Shown: positions 3,878-10,978 of the stretch, piece after piece
Position numbering within the stretch: the first letter of the stretch is position 1
Layout of the letters: each line of letters begins with the position of its first letter
Position numbers and translations under genes: made by a program
UHGV virus genome: UHGV-1290461
DNA length: 18,322 bases
DNA from: a virus
Reading direction: 5' to 3' (one strand)
The notes under the pieces: generated by a model
The model's input: the letters and a program-made list of their open reading frames with translations, nothing else
What the model was told of the DNA's origin: nothing
Database searches by the model: none

Positions 3878-6076
3878 TTACTGCTGTGGTTGTTGCCGGG
3901 TTGATTTTTGCAGGATGCTGCTGATGTCCATGCGCTGCGCATGGCCCTGTGCCTGACTTTTCAGGACAAGCTCTGCATCAGCACGGGCATTGTCTCCTTG
4001 CTGTTGCTGGAACTGTCCGAGCAGTTTCAGAGCCTCGCGGATATCAGATTTCTGCTGGCTATCGGCAGATGCGAGGATTTTCACAACATTTGCCGCTGCA
4101 ACCTGAGCATCAGTCTGTGCCTGGAATGCTTTAACCTGAATGGCTGCCTGTTCGTTCTGCGCTTTCTGCAATTCAGCCTGACCAGCAAGAAGCTGACCTT
4201 GCGCAGCAACCATAGCCGGATCTGGCTGACTGGCCTGTTGTTGTTTCGCCTGCTCAACCATCTGCTGTTCTTCTGGCGTTCTCGGCTTGATAACTCCAGA
4301 CAGAAGCAACTGATTGCGGTTGTATTCTTTAAGGTCGTCCATCCCTTCGCCGTCCATATTGTCGAGAATCATCGACGATACAAGGTCGTGCTTCGGCGTT
4401 CCTGGTGGGATAAGTGCCAGCATGGAAAGTAACGACTTAACCGTTGCATCACGGCGAGTAGCGAACGACTGACCAACATCGACCGTCACTTCATAGTTGC
4501 CCTGCGAAAGGTCATTAAGCGCGATAACCTGCCCTGTCTGACGGTCAACCACTTCACCAGTCATCAGCGCCACGTCATCGCTGCCGTCCTCATTAACGAT
4601 ACGCATCGGCGTATCACTGCCATAGACTTCACGAGCCATAGAAAGCCACACGACGCCAGCACGGCGCATGGATTTAGCCATGTTGTCCATGTAGATATAG
4701 GACTGCGTGTCCATCCGGTTAAAGATGCTATCAACGGTATCGGTAGCGACGTTGCTCGGCATGTTCTCAAGCTGCGACGCACCTGTAATTTGCTGAATAG
4801 CCGTTCCGGTGTACTGCAATAGCCCGGCAAGAGCAGGAGGCATTTGTGTCGGAGGTGTCCAGCCAGCTACCTGAGCCTCTGAAATGACCGTTCCGTTTTT
4901 GTCCTTCTTGCTGGTCATGGGAAGAACTGCAGGTCTTTTCTTATTCCTCTCTGCCCAGTGATTCATTAATGGGCCGGGAATGAAATCAACATCCACGATA
5001 GGAATGCCATCACCGCCAGCCTGAGTAGCGTTATCTGCAATCATGGAAACCATCAGGTTCTCAAGACGCTGTGCATCCATCGCTTTTGCTGCGTGGCCTT
5101 CGATTCGCTCCTGATTATCAACAAATGAGCGACGCCCATATACCGGGATGAGAGGAATATGTTCACCCGGAATACGCTTCGGTTCTTCCAGCCATTCAGC
5201 GCCAGACAGAAGACCGCAATAAACTCTGCGTTTCTTCACTGTCCTCTCACCGATCAGCTCGAATGCACCATCGGTTAGCTCGTCAACAATATCTTTGATT
5301 TGCTCTTCATCATAGATTGCCGTTTCTCCGCTAACAGGGTTGCGCCACGCCGTGAGCTTCACCTTCTCTATGCGAACTTCGTAGTAGCGTCCAACATAGA
5401 TGGCATCGGGCGTTGACCAGTCATATTGAGTGCCAGTGTCATCACGAGAAAGGCTTGCCGCGGTGGAATCAGGGTATTCAGCCTCGAACGCTTTGGGCGT
5501 CATGGAGAACATTTCCATAGCCCACATAGCATCAGAGCGGTCATATTGCTTGCTGTCCTGATCGAAGAAGACGCATGTCGCCGGGTCGTAAACAGGAAGA
5601 AGGCTGATGCGTCGCTGCTCGTTACTTGGGTCCATTTCATCTTCGTAATCGGCACACATGCGGAAACAACCGAATCCGCCTGTTACAGCATCATCAAATG
5701 CGTTATCACACGCTTCGCCACCGGATGTTTCCTGATAGTCAGCGCGGAATTTGCCGTTCATCTTTTCGGCTAACGCTTCCGATGCCTTGTCATCCTTCGG
5801 CCTGAATTTAACGCTGATGCGATTCTGTCGATACTCGCCAATGATGCGATCACATTCACGGGCAATCTTATTCAGTTCAAAACGCGGGTAATGCTCAAAC
5901 CTGCCCTCATCAAACGAGTAACCAGCGTTTGTGCTACCTTCCCACTGTGCGCCGGACACCCTGACGAAACGTTGAGCCTCAATAATCTGCTCACGCATAT
6001 CCTGCGTTGCTGACCAGGCATTATCAAAGTTGCACAGCACCTTGCGATGCCAGTCAGCCATCTTTTTTTCTGCCAT
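3878..6076 (-). CDS. Portal protein, P22-like, with long Q/A-rich C-terminal helical extension
   Basis: 732 aa, located immediately after TerL with start and stop nearly abutting (TGAtATG). C-terminal ~130 aa is Q/A-rich and predicted helical, like the P22 portal barrel. Confidence 0.88.
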   Translation of the reverse strand: MAEKKMADWHRKVLCNFDNAWSATQDMREQIIEAQRFVRVSGAQWEGSTNAGYSFDEGRFEHYPRFELNKIARECDRIIGEYRQNRISVKFRPKDDKASEALAEKMNGKFRADYQETSGGEACDNAFDDAVTGGFGCFRMCADYEDEMDPSNEQRRISLLPVYDPATCVFFDQDSKQYDRSDAMWAMEMFSMTPKAFEAEYPDSTAASLSRDDTGTQYDWSTPDAIYVGRYYEVRIEKVKLTAWRNPVSGETAIYDEEQIKDIVDELTDGAFELIGERTVKKRRVYCGLLSGAEWLEEPKRIPGEHIPLIPVYGRRSFVDNQERIEGHAAKAMDAQRLENLMVSMIADNATQAGGDGIPIVDVDFIPGPLMNHWAERNKKRPAVLPMTSKKDKNGTVISEAQVAGWTPPTQMPPALAGLLQYTGTAIQQITGASQLENMPSNVATDTVDSIFNRMDTQSYIYMDNMAKSMRRAGVVWLSMAREVYGSDTPMRIVNEDGSDDVALMTGEVVDRQTGQVIALNDLSQGNYEVTVDVGQSFATRRDATVKSLLSMLALIPPGTPKHDLVSSMILDNMDGEGMDDLKEYNRNQLLLSGVIKPRTPEEQQMVEQAKQQQASQPDPAMVAAQGQLLAGQAELQKAQNEQAAIQVKAFQAQTDAQVAAANVVKILASADSQQKSDIREALKLLGQFQQQQGDNARADAELVLKSQAQGHAQRMDISSILQKSTRQQPQQ

Positions 6077-6077
6077 A

Positions 6078-7493
6078 TCAACCTACACCACAAGGAATTG
6101 AGTAACTGGAATAGTCGGGTTGCGCAGCCGACTCCGGGCAATGCATACACATCATCAGCGCATCAGCCAGGTTAGGAGATGGAATACCGAGCTTCTGCTT
6201 CATTTCGACCTTAGTCATTAGCTCCAGCTTCCCGTTGTTATTGAATTTGCGCTGAATCTGCGTCAGTTCTGCAAACAGCTTCTCCAGCATCTTCTCGCCT
6301 ATCGCTTCTTTGTCGAAACTCAGCATGTCGTCTGGGTCTGCATACTCACCGTGAACAACCGCCCGATATGTCAGATACAGCCTGTCAGCCAGCGCGTAAT
6401 AGAATTGCGCTCGCTTATTGCGGAATACATCGCCAATAGTGCGAACATTGTCGCCCTGTACGACTTCATCAGCCCATGCTCCGGCCTGATAAGGCGCATC
6501 TTCATCGAATGGCGATTCGCTGCCCTTGAACATCGTGGCGGTGATTTTCTTGCCGGAGAACGCTTCCGTTGTCTGTCTGCGTAGCCCGGCACCAACACCA
6601 TCACCATCCCACAGGTAATGGTCAGCGCCGTCTTCAATTGCCAGCGAAGTAGCCCAGTCAGCACCCTCGTTGATGTCCATCAACAGACCTTCGGCAATGC
6701 GCTTAACTACCGAACCGTGACGCGATGCATAACCTTTAGCATCTGGCCCTGTATCTGATGGGTCATGCGCAGAGACAACAGCGCCTTTCGCTTTCCATCC
6801 GAGTTTCTTGTGCGCATCGGTTGCGGCTTCAAGCCATTCACGTTTGATGATTGCCATATCACTTGCGCTTACTGGCTCACCAAGCCAGATATGACGATAC
6901 AGTGTCGGATTTCTGCGTTTACACTCTTCCATCTCCAGACGGAGAACTTCAGGAAAGTGCGGGTTGTCGGTGTAGTTCACCGTCAGCAGACAAATATCAT
7001 CGGGAGGATTTACAACGAATCGCTGATAGGTATCGTCGAGGATGTTCTTCGGGTTAAAGCTCACCCATATTTCAGAGAACGGCTTACGGATGGTTGGGAT
7101 CAGGATATCCCATGATTCCTTCGTTACCGCTTCCGCTTCTTCCACCCAGCAGATATCAATGCCTTCGAGTGATTTAATCTTCGTCGGGTTGTTTTTGATG
7201 CCGTAGAACATGAACTCAGCATTCGTTCCGAGATGACGAATCATGGAACGCTGAATTTCAAACTCAGCCGAATACCCTTCACGCTCTATGGTGTCTTCAA
7301 GCAACCGGATTACCGAATCGCTGATACTGTTTTGCAGTTCACGAGCGCAGAGAATACGCACTGGCTGCCGACGCGCCGCTTCAACAAGCAGCCTCGCAAT
7401 TGCCCATGACTTACCGCTACCTCGACCGCCTTTGGCGACTTTGTAGCGATGCGCCTCAATGAACGGTTCAAAGATAGGATTAATCGAGGTCAT
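6078..7493 (-). CDS. Terminase large subunit, P22/Sf6 gp2-like
   Basis: 471 aa. Walker A motif KGGRGSGKS near the N-terminus. Start overlaps the TerS stop (ATGA). Size and position match Sf6-type TerL. Confidence 0.92.
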   Translation of the reverse strand: MTSINPIFEPFIEAHRYKVAKGGRGSGKSWAIARLLVEAARRQPVRILCARELQNSISDSVIRLLEDTIEREGYSAEFEIQRSMIRHLGTNAEFMFYGIKNNPTKIKSLEGIDICWVEEAEAVTKESWDILIPTIRKPFSEIWVSFNPKNILDDTYQRFVVNPPDDICLLTVNYTDNPHFPEVLRLEMEECKRRNPTLYRHIWLGEPVSASDMAIIKREWLEAATDAHKKLGWKAKGAVVSAHDPSDTGPDAKGYASRHGSVVKRIAEGLLMDINEGADWATSLAIEDGADHYLWDGDGVGAGLRRQTTEAFSGKKITATMFKGSESPFDEDAPYQAGAWADEVVQGDNVRTIGDVFRNKRAQFYYALADRLYLTYRAVVHGEYADPDDMLSFDKEAIGEKMLEKLFAELTQIQRKFNNNGKLELMTKVEMKQKLGIPSPNLADALMMCMHCPESAAQPDYSSYSIPCGVG

Positions 7494-7930
7494 TTTCCGA
7501 ATAGAGTGCTCATCGGTGATGTTTCAATCTGGATTGCGCCGCCGTCTTTGCCTGTTAGCTCGTGATCAACCTTGTCGCGCCATTTATCCTTCTGTCGGTT
7601 CTTAAGCCAGAAGATGGCGGCGGTTGTATCAGGCGGGTAATACTTCTCAAGCGGAGTTTCGACAATTCTGTTTTCAATAACACGAATATCGATGTCTGGA
7701 GCCACGAAGCCCATAGCGCGTTGATAAAGACGGTCACTAACTTCTGCATCAGCGACGGCCTTACCCTTTTTTATGGACTCCGAAAACTTAGGATAATCAA
7801 GCTTCCACTTGTTAATAGTTGACTCACTGACTTCAAAGAAATCAGCAAGTTCTGCGTCTGTATAGCCCAGCAAGCACAGTTTGCGTGCCTGTTCGGCATA
7901 CGCCTCTTGATACTTTGTTGGGCGCGCCAT
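7490..7930 (-). CDS. Terminase small subunit
   Basis: 146 aa immediately upstream of and overlapping TerL. N-terminal helix-turn-helix-like segment (TDAELADFFEVSESTINKW). GGAGC Shine-Dalgarno upstream. Confidence 0.8.
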   Translation of the reverse strand: MARPTKYQEAYAEQARKLCLLGYTDAELADFFEVSESTINKWKLDYPKFSESIKKGKAVADAEVSDRLYQRAMGFVAPDIDIRVIENRIVETPLEKYYPPDTTAAIFWLKNRQKDKWRDKVDHELTGKDGGAIQIETSPMSTLFGK

Positions 7931-7932
7931 GT

Positions 7933-8175
7933 TTATGCTCCGGTAGTGAACAGGTCTAACGCTTCCTTCGATTTACGCACCGCTTCAAATGTACGGATCG
8001 TGATATCCGAATTAGCGCCGCCTGACTGGAAGTGAATTTTGAATAGCTCAAGCTTCAGCTCGTCAGTGCCAATGAATTGAAATGCTTCTTCTGCGGCTGC
8101 GTTCTGGTTCATTACCAGTTTGTAAATCTCTAGCTGGAATTTCTGTTCTTCAGTCATGGGAATAATCTCTGCCAT
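7933..8175 (-). CDS. Hypothetical 80 aa protein upstream of terminase small subunit
   Basis: ATG at 8175 preceded by GGAG at about 7 nt. Stop lies 2 nt before the TerS start. Not recognised as any family. Confidence 0.45.
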   Translation of the reverse strand: MAEIIPMTEEQKFQLEIYKLVMNQNAAAEEAFQFIGTDELKLELFKIHFQSGGANSDITIRTFEAVRKSKEALDLFTTGA

Positions 8176-8342
8176 TATTGGCTCCGTTTATCCGTTAAAA
8201 GGGATATCAGTTAAGTTATCCCGTGTAGGGTATAAGCCATTGTCGAGACCACTCATTGAATGGCCTCTGCAATAACCGATGTCTTTCCATCAGTCCGCCA
8301 CCACAAAGAATCTTTTTTGCCATAAGGCTGGAGGTTCATCTT

Positions 8343-8549
8343 TCAGTGGCTGCCAGTGTTATTTCCCCACTTACTGGCTTGGGTTGCTTCGTGGTACTGC
8401 CGTAACTGGTTGCCAAGAATAAATTCTGGTTTCATTATCAAGCCCACCCGTAGATAGGCTTTGTAATGGCTACAGTAACGGACTGCACAATGCGCCTGTA
8501 TTTCGAGGATGACGTCCAAATACGTTAATCTTCTCGCGAACGCTCTCAC
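8343..8549 (-). other. Overlapping ORF in a different frame (68 aa from a GTG; only ATG gives 30 aa); possible frameshifted 3' part of the upstream gene or non-coding
   Basis: Overlaps the 91 aa ORF by 80 nt in another frame. No convincing ribosome-binding site. First ATG at 8435. Confidence 0.15.
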
Positions 8550-8745
8550 TACACATTCGCTCTACAATTCGCCAAACAGCCTTTTCAGGTAAAAATTTCG
8601 GCGCTAGTGCTGAAATAGCACGCCACAGACCCCGACTAAGCGAGCATGCTGTGCTACCGAAACTAAAGATGGCGAACGAAATAGACGTGATAAACGCCCA
8701 GCAACCAGAGAGAAAAGTTGAGATGCGGTGATAAAGCTTAGTCAT
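8470..8745 (-). CDS. Hypothetical 91 aa protein with N-terminal hydrophobic segment, downstream of Rz/Rz1
   Basis: ATG at 8745 preceded by AGGAG at 6 nt. Residues 10-30 (TFLSGCWAFITSISFAIFSFG) are hydrophobic and could span a membrane. No family recognised. Confidence 0.4.
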   Translation of the reverse strand: MTKLYHRISTFLSGCWAFITSISFAIFSFGSTACSLSRGLWRAISALAPKFLPEKAVWRIVERMCSESVREKINVFGRHPRNTGALCSPLL

Positions 8746-8781
8746 GTATTGCTCCTGTTTTTTTTGGTTTTCATCGCCCGA

Positions 8782-9219
8782 TCATTTCAGGCATTGCGTC
8801 CTGATGTATTCCTGCAAGTAGTTAACCTGCGCGGTTATCCTGTCGATTCCACTTCGTAGACGGTAATAATTGAGTTCAGCATCTGCTGTAAGTCTTGGGC
8901 TTTCTCCATCGCCCATGCTGCTGGCTCCGGTCGTTGACTTTGCACAGGTGGCGGCGACTTGCAGGCGCTTACGACCAGCAGAAACATCAGCGCGGAGACT
9001 TTCGATAGTCGCGTTAGCATCAGCAAGCTCCTTTGTGTATCTGGCGTCAAGTTCTGCTACATCACGTTGACGCTTCTGCATGTCAGCGATGATGGATGCG
9101 GCTTTGTCGCGCTGCTCTTTGTAGGCGATGGCGTTATCACGGTAATGATTAACAGCCCATGACAGGCAAACGATGATGCAGATAACCAGAGCGGAGATAA
9201 TCGCGGTGACTCTGCTCAT
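8782..9219 (-). CDS. Rz: i-spanin Rz
   Basis: 145 aa. N-terminus [31 protein letters not shown] matches lambda Rz as recalled. Start overlaps the R stop (ATGA). Confidence 0.93.
8835..9020 (-). CDS. Rz1: o-spanin Rz1 (outer-membrane lipoprotein), embedded in Rz in the +1 frame
   Basis: Embedded ORF with signal-like [20 protein letters not shown] (lipobox VSAC) followed by a proline-rich segment ([13 protein letters not shown]), as in lambda Rz1. Start chosen at the internal ATG at 9020; exact start uncertain. Confidence 0.7.
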
Positions 9220-9692
9220 ACCTCAATCTCTCTGACCGTTCCGCCAGCTTCTTTGAATTTTGCAATCAGGCTGTCAGCCTTATGCTCGAACTGACCATAA
9301 CCAGCGCCCGGCAGTGAAGCCCAGATATTGCTGCAACGGTCGATTGCCTGACGGATATCACCGCGATCAATCATCGGCAAAGCGCCACGCTCTTTAATCT
9401 GTTGCAGTGCCACAGCGTCCTGGCTTTTCGGAGAGAAGTCTTTCAGGCCAAGCTGCTTACGATAGGCATCCCACCAACGGGAAAGAAGCTGGTAACGTCC
9501 GGCTGCTGTTGATTTGAGTTTTGGGTTTAGCGTAACAAGTTTGCGAGGGTGATCGGAGTAATCAGTGAATAGCTCTCCGCCAACAATGACGTCATAACCA
9601 TGATTTCTGGTTTTCTGCCGTCCGTTATCAGTTCCCTCTGACCACGCCAGCATATCGAGAAACGCCTTACGTTGATTATTGATTTCCACCAT
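9216..9692 (-). CDS. R: Endolysin R (lytic transglycosylase)
   Basis: 158 aa. [53 protein letters not shown]... is essentially the lambda R sequence as recalled. Overlaps S by 17 nt, as in lambda. Confidence 0.95.
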
Positions 9693-9999
9693 CTTCTACT
9701 CCGGCTTTTTTAGCAGCGAAGCGTTTGATAAGCGAACCAATCGAGTCAGTACCGATGTAGCCGATGAACACGCTCGTTATATAAGCGAGATTGCTACTTA
9801 GTCCTGCGAAGTCGAGAAGGTCACGAATGAACCAGGCGATAATGGCGCACATCGTTGCGTCGATTACTGTTTTTGTAAACGCACCGCCATTATATCTGCC
9901 GCGAAGGTACGCCATTGCAAACGCAAGGATTGCCCCGATGCCTTGTTCCTTTGCCGCGAGAATGGCGGCTAACAGGTCATGTTTTTCTGGCATCTTCAT
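9676..9999 (-). CDS. S: Holin/antiholin S (S107 from the ATG at 9999, S105 from the ATG at 9993)
   Basis: 107 aa beginning [43 protein letters not shown], the lambda S dual-start motif (Met1-Lys2-Met3) and sequence as recalled. Confidence 0.95.
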
Positions 10000-10241: not shown

Positions 10242-10317
10242 TGGTGCTGGTTAACGGACTTGAACCGCTACCCATTCGCTTACAAGGCGACCGCTCTACC
10301 ATTGGAGCTAAACCAGC
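10242..10317 (-). tRNA. tRNA-Thr (anticodon UGU), 76 nt with encoded CCA
   Basis: Hand-folded cloverleaf: acceptor GCUGGUU/AACCAGC (7 bp); D-arm GCUC/GAGC; anticodon loop CUUGUAA; T-arm AGCGG/CCGUU with loop UUCAAGU; discriminator A then CCA. Non-canonical points: G27-A43 mismatch and C at position 14. Confidence 0.65.
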
Positions 10318-10322
10318 ATGTT

Positions 10323-10397
10323 TGGCGGGACAGCGTGGACTCGAACCACGATAAGAAGGTTAACAGCCTTCCGTAATGACCTTTATACGACTGACCC
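10323..10397 (-). tRNA. tRNA-Asn-like (anticodon GUU), 75 nt with encoded CCA
   Basis: Hand-folded: acceptor GGGUCAG/CUGUCCC (one U-U mismatch); anticodon stem GAAGG/CCUUC with loop CUGUUAA (same loop as E. coli tRNA-Asn); T-arm CGUGG/CCACG with loop UUCGAGU; G73 then CCA. Weak D-stem and 4-nt variable loop. Confidence 0.55.
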
Positions 10398-10446: not shown

Positions 10447-10482
10447 CTGCTAATTATGGCTAAATGACTAATTGCATGTCAA
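10447..10482 (-). promoter_or_regulatory. Putative late promoter pR' (-35 TTGACA, 18-bp spacer, -10 CATAAT), overlapping the 3' end of Q
   Basis: Consensus -35 TTGACA at 10482..10477 (inside the last Q codons) and -10 CATAAT at 10458..10453, immediately after the Q stop codon. Confidence 0.5.
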
Positions 10483-10978
10483 GGCTTTTAACAGCAACAT
10501 GCTTAACTTTCTCAACACGTTTACGCATTTTGAAAGCATTTTGCATTGGCTGGTACAAAACAAATAACGACGCTTTCAGGATGTCGTCAATTTCGTTTCT
10601 ACAGGTTGCCAGTGAAGGTTTTCTCCATCCCTCGCCACCACGTCCACACATCTTGCGTGGCTTTGCAGTCGCGTGATAGTAGGATGCAATTGCTCGCTTA
10701 GATGAACCATGAGCGTAGTAGCTGAGGAGGATGCCAAAGGCTTTCTTGTCAATGTACATGACGGAATCGACGACCTGAGAAATCAACATTCCATCATCAT
10801 CATTACACATTGGCCTTGTCATAATTCTTCCCGGCTCTACGCTCTCCATGAACTTCGCTATTACGCTGCTCATGCGCTTTTCCAGACGACCTGAATAAAC
10901 CCATGCGCCCCACAGTTCAAGCCAGCCATTCAGCCACTCGTGCTGCTCTTTGGTGAGGTTTAGTTCTCTTATGCTCAT
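10460..10978 (-). CDS. Q: Late-gene antiterminator Q, phage-82/QuuD-like family
   Basis: 172 aa. Motifs LELWGAWVYSG and TRPMCNDDDGMLISQVVD resemble the ERWGAW and RPxCxDDDxM motifs of the phage-82-type Q family. Sits between the nin region and the lysis genes. Confidence 0.75.
   Translation of the reverse strand: MSIRELNLTKEQHEWLNGWLELWGAWVYSGRLEKRMSSVIAKFMESVEPGRIMTRPMCNDDDGMLISQVVDSVMYIDKKAFGILLSYYAHGSSKRAIASYYHATAKPRKMCGRGGEGWRKPSLATCRNEIDDILKASLFVLYQPMQNAFKMRKRVEKVKHVAVKSLDMQLVI

Follow-up and report, generated by a model that had tools for sequence, protein, structure and literature searches.

A structured RNA related to Proteo-phage-1 and a small gene in the late operon of a P22-like phage

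The window analyzed here is an 18,322-nucleotide (nt) stretch of a virus genome (UHGV-1290461), and the locus of interest occupies positions 8176–8781. Its features are read on the minus strand, which is the strand of the late transcript. The locus lies within the late operon of a P22-like or lambdoid phage, with the lysis genes on one side and the packaging genes on the other. It consists of a genuine small phage gene of 91 codons (8470–8745), to which no function is assigned, followed by a spacer (8176–8469). Judged by sequence comparison, this spacer is a conserved non-coding region that acts as RNA and is not a decayed gene. We conclude that its pseudoknot-containing core is probably a divergent, hitherto unannotated branch of the Proteo-phage-1 RNA family (Rfam RF03044).

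This descriptive part, a real gene together with a structured RNA of the Proteo-phage-1 family, is very probably correct. The complete statement, which adds a role of the RNA in cis on the late mRNA, is held with moderate confidence. If it is true, then P22, HK022, Sf6-like and HK97-like phages, and BTP1 carry an unannotated structured RNA in their late operons, as do roughly half of the sequenced Escherichia coli genomes.

Conservation and folding of the spacer

The elements of the locus are listed below in the order in which they are transcribed. Amino acid is abbreviated aa, open reading frame ORF, and Shine-Dalgarno sequence SD.

8470–8745, minus strand: 91-aa ORF, PHROG 34701; ATG at 8745–8743, stop codon UAG at 8470–8472
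8343–8549, minus strand: 68-aa ORF in another frame, overlapping the 91-aa ORF by 80 nt (8470–8549)
8433–8468, minus strand: module A hairpin, CAUUA-CA-AAGCCUAUC-UACG-GGUGGGCUU-GA-UAAUG, right after the stop codon at 8470–8472
8348–8383, minus strand: H-type pseudoknot; stem S1 pairs CCC (8383–8381) with GGG (8368–8366), loop L1 is AA
8352–8378, minus strand: stem S2 of the pseudoknot, GCCAG (8378–8374) with CUGGC (8356–8352)
8297–8350, minus strand: long hairpin H3 (GCCACU...GGUGGC), starting in the conserved AGCC and carrying a CCUCC-type pyrimidine motif near its apex
8293–8299, minus strand: conserved GGCGGAC (8299–8293)
8276–8293, minus strand: hairpin H4, CUGAUG-GAAAGA-CAUCGG, the 3' end of the conserved core
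8239–8273, minus strand: hairpin H5, AUUG..GAGGCCAUUC-AAU-GAGUGGUCUC..CAAU
8197–8222, minus strand: terminator-like hairpin H6 ahead of the SD of the DUF2560 gene, GGGAUA-N10-UAUCCC (8201–8222) followed by UUUU (8200–8197)

The block from 8176 to 8473 is 88–99% conserved in 207 phage records, including HK022, P22, ST64T, and Sf101; Stx2 phages have part of it. Numerous phages of E. coli and Salmonella carry the RNA, and almost all of the records leave it unannotated. Of 5426 complete E. coli genomes, 2556 contain parts of the block, and 656 contain at least 80% of it. Among the RefSeq matches listed, no RNA gene or other feature is assigned to the block, apart from adjacent or inserted genes that overlap it. 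Whatever the upstream gene, the conserved block begins exactly at its stop codon. Moreover, the core motif has one match in the window and none in 200 shuffled versions. This result and the conservation in 207 records argue that the spacer is not a chance sequence.

The initial annotation of this locus, which was made from the letters alone, had described the second, overlapping ORF and some 170 base pairs (bp) without coding signal. Both are present, and the latter stretch (8176–8342, ~167 bp) holds only short minus-strand ORFs of at most 35 aa. No ORF in the interval, on either strand, matches a Pfam family; five further small spacer ORFs were scanned against PHROGs only and gave nothing significant (one weak match, E 0.035). 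The Bor-like lipoprotein that the annotation had also found missing was likewise not detected in these scans. In homologues of the block, indels of +1 (Emek) and +2 (P22) are seen, and a single fixed position has received insertions of 100 to about 660 bp; such changes would destroy the 68-aa and 35-aa ORFs. Several records annotate small ORFs within the spacer, and these are probably spurious. The records also disagree with one another. In ST64T, the start of the DUF2560 gene (orf118; L005, 1652–2008) is placed inside the conserved RNA block. In P22 (ORF25; L006, 1650–1751) and in Sf101 (gp64), small ORFs are called inside it.

The possibility that the locus is a structured RNA had been raised from the start, and for 8176–8469 it is supported by strand-specific folding and by covariation. 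Compared with shuffled sequences, the 298-nt stretch folds with a z-score of −4.35 on the minus strand versus −1.89 on the plus strand. The leader segment 8176–8277 gives −4.31 (minus strand), and module A, which includes G·U pairs, gives −3.09 versus −0.66 on the plus strand. For H5, 98.2% of cells are paired in 47 distinct sequences, compared with 39–54% when the partners are slid. Three of its pairs change from GC to AU on both sides, one pair is seen as GU, GC, and AU, and its G·U pairs function on the minus strand only.

Covariation is also seen in the pseudoknot. The S1 helix, which lies outside the pattern used to search for relatives save for one base, is formed by 3–8 bp in ~15 sequence versions. 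At the two free positions of S2, G-C is present in 25 and A-U in 7 of the 49 distinct matches, the switch from A-U to G-C occurring between lineages. Matches without S2 complementarity mostly also have no clear S1 helix, and these look like chance matches. The stems are flanked by conserved AGU, AACAC, and 3' AGCC. We regard as demonstrated the pseudoknot, the pairings of H4 and H5, the strand specificity, the non-coding character, the conservation, and the homology to the Pseudomonas RNAs described below.

The remaining two hairpins are less certain. H3 is predicted in the fold of the 298-nt stretch and in an alifold consensus of 72 enteric sequences, and most distant relatives, when folded singly, have a hairpin after AGCC. 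However, the sequences vary too little for covariation, and H3 is only weakly supported. Its apex at 8318–8326 (minus strand) reads GAACCUCCAGCC, with CCUCCU in most relatives, which is similar to the anti-Shine-Dalgarno end of 16S rRNA. In distant members, CU-rich motifs (CCUCC, CUUCC, CUCCU) occur at the corresponding place. H6 corresponds to an inverted repeat noticed in the initial annotation, although it spans 8201–8222 rather than the reported 8201–8226. It has a 6-bp stem with three G-C pairs and a 10-nt loop, together with UUUUAACG. In an intrinsic terminator scan that called for a G+C-rich stem, a loop of 3–8 nt, and a U-tract with at least 5 U in 8, H6 is not called because its loop is 10 nt long.

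The modules of the spacer also occur in other combinations. In Enterobacter prophages, module A follows the 91-aa gene and retains its pairing through compensatory changes, and in SPN3UB and ES18 it is found alone. In the Stx2 phage 1717 (L011, 1500–1595), the H6 leader follows an A-type hairpin without interruption; in phage Ayreon (L012, 1470–1570), an H5-type-b hairpin takes the place of the A-type hairpin. Neither phage has the core, and both hairpins run into ...GAUAAUGG(C/U)UUAUACCC and H6. The frame CCAUUACAAAGCC...GGCUUGAUAAUGG is common to module A and H5 type b, which in this respect resemble direct repeats on either side of the core. The arrangement in 1717 and Ayreon therefore indicates that the core is a discrete cassette with two similar hairpins at its borders. 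A check for this hairpin cassette as a general repeat in the window showed that it is not one.

Sharp mosaic junctions are seen at 8473, about 8404–8410, 8278, 8224, and 8187. The point directly after GACAUC of H4 is an insertion hot spot, at which at least five alternative continuations are found. The finding marks precisely a site where phages exchange accessory and anti-defence genes.

Relationship to the Proteo-phage-1 family

At gathering threshold, Rfam recognizes only two tRNAs in the whole window. The sole other Rfam family match is to RF03044, with an alignment to 8348–8419 on the minus strand (17.1 bits, E 1–3). The shared blocks are AAGCC.GU.AGUG and AACAC.GGCAGCC, and the conserved single-stranded blocks are identical. 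In both RNAs, AAGCC.G..AGUG occupies the loop of a hairpin, S1 in the window, and AA.AACAC.GGCAGCC follows; both are found in proteobacterial phages or prophages. The loop of the second RF03044 hairpin, AUAAGCCGGuuAGUG, is matched by the CCC/GGG stem around AAGCCAGUAAGU (8383–8366), and the 3' tail of the family, AAaAACaCCGGCAGCC, is matched by AAAUAACACUGGCAGCC (8364–8348). No match was found to the 5' hairpin of RF03044 (GCCaGgG...cCuGG), where the alignment has non-standard pairs and the enteric copies read ACGGCAGUACC(G/A)CGAAAC. The P22 and HK022 loci give no RF03044 match at threshold.

Distant loci were retrieved with a degenerate pattern made from the conserved blocks of the window. 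Among viral contigs, this pattern recovers ~120 close enteric copies and one Pseudomonas-type phage (L082), whose RNA is a true RF03044 match (79 bits) located just upstream of holin, Rz, and Rz1. In a set with one genome per species, it recovers many Pseudomonas loci and single loci in Stutzerimonas, Acidithiobacillus, Tahibacter, Pseudolysobacter, Burkholderia, and others. Rfam calls the Pseudomonas and Stutzerimonas loci (42–85 bits) but not the enteric or more distant ones. Two other patterns were less productive: GGCGGACV..GAAAGA..CAATGAG gave only chance matches in viral contigs, L082 excepted, and a strict Proteo-phage-1-type pattern gave only two loci in the same contigs.

All Pseudomonas members carry (C/U)UUGGC(G/A)GAC 81–93 nt after the pseudoknot and, 3' of it, a hairpin whose loop reads G(A/G)AAGA. 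The stem of this hairpin differs among Pseudomonas lineages (GAGGG/CCCUC, GCGUG/CACGC, and GCGCG/CGCGC). The module, present in 21 Pseudomonas sequences, lies outside both the Rfam model and the search pattern, and the window has it too as GGCGGAC and H4. When a covariance model built from Pseudomonas sequences only was run on both strands of the 18-kb window, its best match was 8272–8300 on the minus strand (E about 0.013). The shared blocks, together with this independent placement of the GGCGGAC/GAAAGA hairpin, are the basis for our conclusion that the window core probably belongs to the family.

The copies nevertheless differ. S1 has only 3 bp in the window, and the pseudoknot is separated from H4 by 48 nt rather than 81–93 nt. 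The window copy follows the lysis genes, whereas the Pseudomonas copies of RF03044 precede the holin gene. The Rfam model itself is 82 nt long and has two hairpins, without the S2 pseudoknot or H4. These comparisons lead us to conclude that the Proteo-phage-1 family is likely to be larger than this model, its architecture being extended by a pseudoknot and a second conserved hairpin.

The Pseudomonas prophage copies lie between NinG-type early genes and an S-type holin gene. They begin either at the stop codon of the preceding ORF or immediately behind a terminator, and a strong intrinsic terminator follows them. One prophage (L155) has two copies ~1.25 kb apart, at 5997–6075 and 7249–7329 (58 and 79 bits). 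Its first copy directly follows a strong terminator, has AGUCGG for AAGCCGG, and has G·U pairs in S2. A further copy of ~195 nt is chromosomal in the Pseudomonas brassicacearum/corrugata/mediterranea group, where it lies between metallothionein and KGG-repeat stress genes (L157, 3760–3990, minus strand, and ~20 related loci). A distant pseudoknot copy lies after a capsid-like and before an integrase-like gene in a small phage-like element (L199), which also has a c4-2 RNA (RF02944, 42.3 bits) at 1363–1437 on the minus strand.

Several observations weigh against our interpretation of the RNA. The alignment to RF03044 reaches 17 bits versus a gathering score of 42, and the search pattern was derived from the window, so that the sequence match of the pseudoknot is partly built in. 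The high identity of the block could come from recent horizontal spread and not from selection. The enteric core is almost invariant, and therefore H3 and H4 are backed only by distant relatives. The core alone has a fold z-score of −0.59, in a calculation without the pseudoknot and with H4 truncated. H6 is a weak hairpin whose pairs are nearly invariant, so covariation is uninformative either way. The copy of the P. corrugata group is apparently not in a phage, ends in a GAAAGA hairpin plus a U-run, and is more like a free-standing small RNA (sRNA). Finally, of 127 motif matches tallied, 13 from the viral contigs (L014–L133) have GCCAG facing CCGGC, an A·C mismatch in S2, mostly together with the upstream variant CCAGTTAACGGCAGTACCACG; such an S2 may be a tolerated or an inactive allele.

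Proteo-phage-1 has so far been recognized only in Pseudomonas-type sequences and is a functionally uncharacterized family. The motif comes from Weinberg et al. (2017; PMC5737381), whose main text does not discuss it. The name does not occur in the searchable literature, and the element goes unmentioned in a phage-sRNA review and in the BTP1 and pid papers. If the enteric RNAs belong to this family, they supply it with a genetically tractable host and phage system.

Proposed role in cis and alternative explanations

The RNA might act in cis on the late transcript; among the mechanisms considered, we tentatively regard this one as the most likely. It would form a folded leader or 3' trailer within the late mRNA, either bound by a factor or folding cotranscriptionally. 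It could then set read-through, processing, or stability at the hairpins located 3' of it, and thereby the expression of the packaging genes downstream of the lysis cassette. H5 and H6 would serve as a leader for the DUF2560 and terminase genes just ahead of the ribosome-binding site. At enteric loci, the RNA is always in the sense orientation relative to the operon. Rz lies upstream on the same strand in all 118 loci with detectable Rz, and a DUF2560 gene lies downstream in 99 enteric loci. A promoter scan found no promoter-like site on the strand of the RNA in the window. A role in cis is favored by this invariable orientation, the lack of a promoter-like site, the holin-leader position in Pseudomonas with strong terminators behind it, and the absence of an annotated sRNA between rha and pid in BTP1 RNA-seq.

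Alternatively, the core could be a trans-acting sRNA, either liberated from the late mRNA or produced as a short, terminated RNA of its own, that has host or phage targets or is a sponge for an RNA-binding protein. Lambdoid phages make short transcripts from pR', such as lambda 6S RNA and StxS of Stx phages. The Pseudomonas prophage copies (type 1) resemble these in position, as both lie between the early/late-regulator region and the holin gene and end in a strong terminator. The window copy lies ~1.5 kb further downstream, after the lysis genes, and the likeness is one of position only. Rfam types RF03044 as "Gene; sRNA", the ~195-nt Pseudomonas copies (type 2) have an H4 and U-run end at a non-phage chromosomal site, and the enteric conserved unit stops right after H4. 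However, the enteric copies have no U-tract after H4, the window shows no promoter-like site upstream of the core, and the RNA-seq annotation of a BTP1 lysogen lists no sRNA at this position, between rha and pid. An sRNA is, in our estimation, a rather unlikely alternative.

A passive function is about equally doubtful, if not slightly more so. According to this explanation, the hairpins are mRNA punctuation, meaning 3' stabilizers and RNase processing sites that set the lysis and moron segment apart from the packaging genes and need no specific factor or ligand. Module A is positioned right at stop codons and keeps compensatory changes after the 91-aa gene even without the core, and the core has similar cassettes, module A and H5 type b, on its two sides. 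In addition, a stabilizing 3' hairpin has been documented for the neighboring pid transcript of P22 (PMC8835761). Punctuation would leave the pseudoknot unexplained, as well as the single-stranded blocks (AAGCC..AGU, AACAC, AGCC, GGCGGAC, and GAAAGA) that are nearly invariant from Enterobacteriaceae to Pseudomonas and beyond.

The conservation could instead operate at the DNA level, in which case the spacer at this mosaic boundary would be a recombination "linker" or a conversion tract associated with homing, and its RNA structure would be incidental. Such a linker would fit the sharp junctions, the very high identity across otherwise different phages, and the use of the same insertion points by GIY-YIG and HNH nuclease, Gp49, and anti-CRISPR genes. 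It would not be expected to keep strand-specific, G·U-containing helices with compensatory changes. Nor does it fit homologues in Pseudomonas, Acidithiobacillus, and Xanthomonadales, which retain the structure with little of the sequence. We consider this explanation improbable.

It is likewise improbable that the ~135-nt core (S1/S2, H3, GGCGGAC, and the GAAAGA-loop hairpin; approximately 8410–8276, minus strand) is a functional RNA machine of lambdoid late operons, either a new class of self-cleaving ribozyme distantly similar to twister or a factor-independent, put-like RNA that alters RNA polymerase or the read-through of terminators. If it were, such a machine would be hidden in P22, HK022, and about half of E. 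coli genomes. That the pseudoknot core is a catalytic RNA or acts on RNA polymerase, in the form of a twister-like self-cleaving ribozyme or a put-like processive antiterminator, seems very improbable to us, even though the compact pseudoknot has many invariant nucleotides and is located in polycistronic phage operons in front of terminators.

The resemblance to twister was followed to the level of single motifs. The core is similar to rice twister both in the order of its blocks and in their sequence (CCC-AA-GC ... AGUG ... GGG ... U-AACACUG). The rice sequence is consistent with the A7/G45 numbering in PMC5408937, from which the consensus features (a P2 of 4 bp, P4, and G-A after P2) were taken. 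Both RNAs have a double pairing in which CCC/GGG and GC/GC contacts surround AAGC, AGUG, and UAACAC blocks. In contrast, AGUG in the window core is not followed by the catalytic G-A. Conservation is also lacking at the nucleotide 5' of the hypothetical cleavage site, the equivalents of P2 and P4 are lost in the Pseudomonas members, and the competing S2 pairing covaries. No Rfam match to twister, twister-sister, pistol, hatchet, or hammerhead was obtained at E values up to 10. Membership in the twister class was rejected on the grounds of the missing Rfam match and the failure of P2 and P4 in the Pseudomonas members.

Lastly, the initial annotation had offered a frameshifted remnant as one option, but 8176–8469 is almost certainly not what is left of a decayed or frameshifted protein gene. 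Two ORFs do overlap in different frames, and some records have small ORFs annotated there or a DUF2560 gene extended at its N terminus (ST64T orf118, P22 ORF25, Sf101 gp64, and Emek orf53). However, no ORF has a family match, the 68-aa ORF shares half of its length with the real 91-aa gene and this half is missing from other phages, the block starts at the upstream stop codon, its indels are not multiples of three, its insertions are of 100–700 bp, and no intact longer version was found among more than 200 phages.

The 91-codon gene and its surroundings

The 91-aa ORF has the SD that the initial annotation had reported, AGGAG (8756–8752), which is located 6 nt ahead of its ATG. Its product matches the PHROG 34701 profile, a group of hypothetical phage proteins, end to end (E 7e-57, residues 1–91 on profile positions 1–91). 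Neither the 68-aa nor the 35-aa ORF has a match of this kind. There are 53 full-length homologues in E. coli, Enterobacter, and Citrobacter, nearly all of 90–91 aa and with 55–73% identity. In their alignment, a hydrophobic N terminus is joined by a linker of variable sequence to a C-terminal half that hardly varies, W58..VERMCSESVREKINVFGRHPRNTGALCSPLL. Four contexts were read in Enterobacter prophages, and in these the gene directly follows four different kinds of lysis cassette and lies ahead of terminase. The full-length homologues, the conserved C-terminal half, and the fixed position after diverse lysis cassettes establish the ORF as a real gene.

The proposal of a small membrane-type gene holds as far as the gene itself is concerned, which is real and conserved; the hydrophobic stretch of its product is borderline for a membrane helix. 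This stretch (about residues 8–37) includes several Ser, Thr, and Gly residues, and the Kyte-Doolittle 19-residue mean peaks at 1.69 for residues 11–29, where the usual cut-off is ~1.6. AlphaFold predicts, with low confidence, a single long helix at residues 2–51 (pLDDT 62, pTM 0.28). No family match for the protein was found in Pfam, NCBIfam, or PADLOC, neither to Bor-type lipoproteins nor to known defence or exclusion proteins, and the exclusion or toxin role considered in the initial annotation is hypothetical.

The gene is probably expressed from the late transcript. It begins only 36 nt after the Rz stop codon, and a promoter scan revealed no sigma-70-like promoter upstream of it on its strand. 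It therefore appears to be a late-operon cassette rather than a moron with its own expression. The initial comparison with the moron slot of lambda bor is apt as regards position, since pid of P22 occupies the identical slot. In P22 and BTP1, pid is a moron on the opposite strand between Rz and the packaging genes (PMC3573128, PMC8835761). In contrast to bor and pid, which have their own promoters and run against the late operon, the 91-aa gene is on the late strand, and it has no sequence similarity to either.

Between Rz and the packaging genes, phages carry many alternative cassettes, of which this gene is one. It is present in only 5 of 137 related loci, the window itself not counted, and elsewhere the slot holds genes for Rha, KilA-N, GIY-YIG nuclease, Gp49, or anti-CRISPR proteins. 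The RNA core was looked for in the Enterobacter prophages that carry the 91-aa gene and is absent from them, which indicates that gene and core are independent modules.

The entire locus is 98% identical in DNA to that of phage HK140, in which gp68, annotated as hypothetical, is the counterpart of the 91-aa gene, and to that of Lederbergvirus N7. All genes in this part of the window are on the minus strand, in the order Q-type gene, tRNAs, holin, endolysin, Rz/Rz1, 91-aa ORF, ~295-nt spacer, DUF2560 gene, and terminase. The neighbors of the locus are as follows.

10460–10978, minus strand: Q-type gene
10242–10397, minus strand: tRNA-Thr (UGU) and tRNA-Asn (GUU), between the Q-type gene and the holin gene
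9676–9999, minus strand: holin
9216–9692, minus strand: endolysin
8782–9219, minus strand: Rz (Pfam Phage_lysis, 3.5e-36)
8835–9050, minus strand: Rz1
8182–8185, minus strand: SD of the DUF2560 gene, GGAG (8185–8182), with the start codon at 8175–8173, both read from the sequence
7933–8175, minus strand: DUF2560 gene (Pfam DUF2560, 2.6e-42), the counterpart of P22 orf80
7490–7930, minus strand: small terminase
6078–7493, minus strand: large terminase

Two minor observations concern other phages. N7 leaves the 91-aa gene unannotated (L002, 1606–1881); the annotation of such loci can be corrected in that this ORF is real and the spacer ORFs are probably spurious. In BTP1, the same tRNA-Thr/tRNA-Asn pair likewise lies between Q and S.

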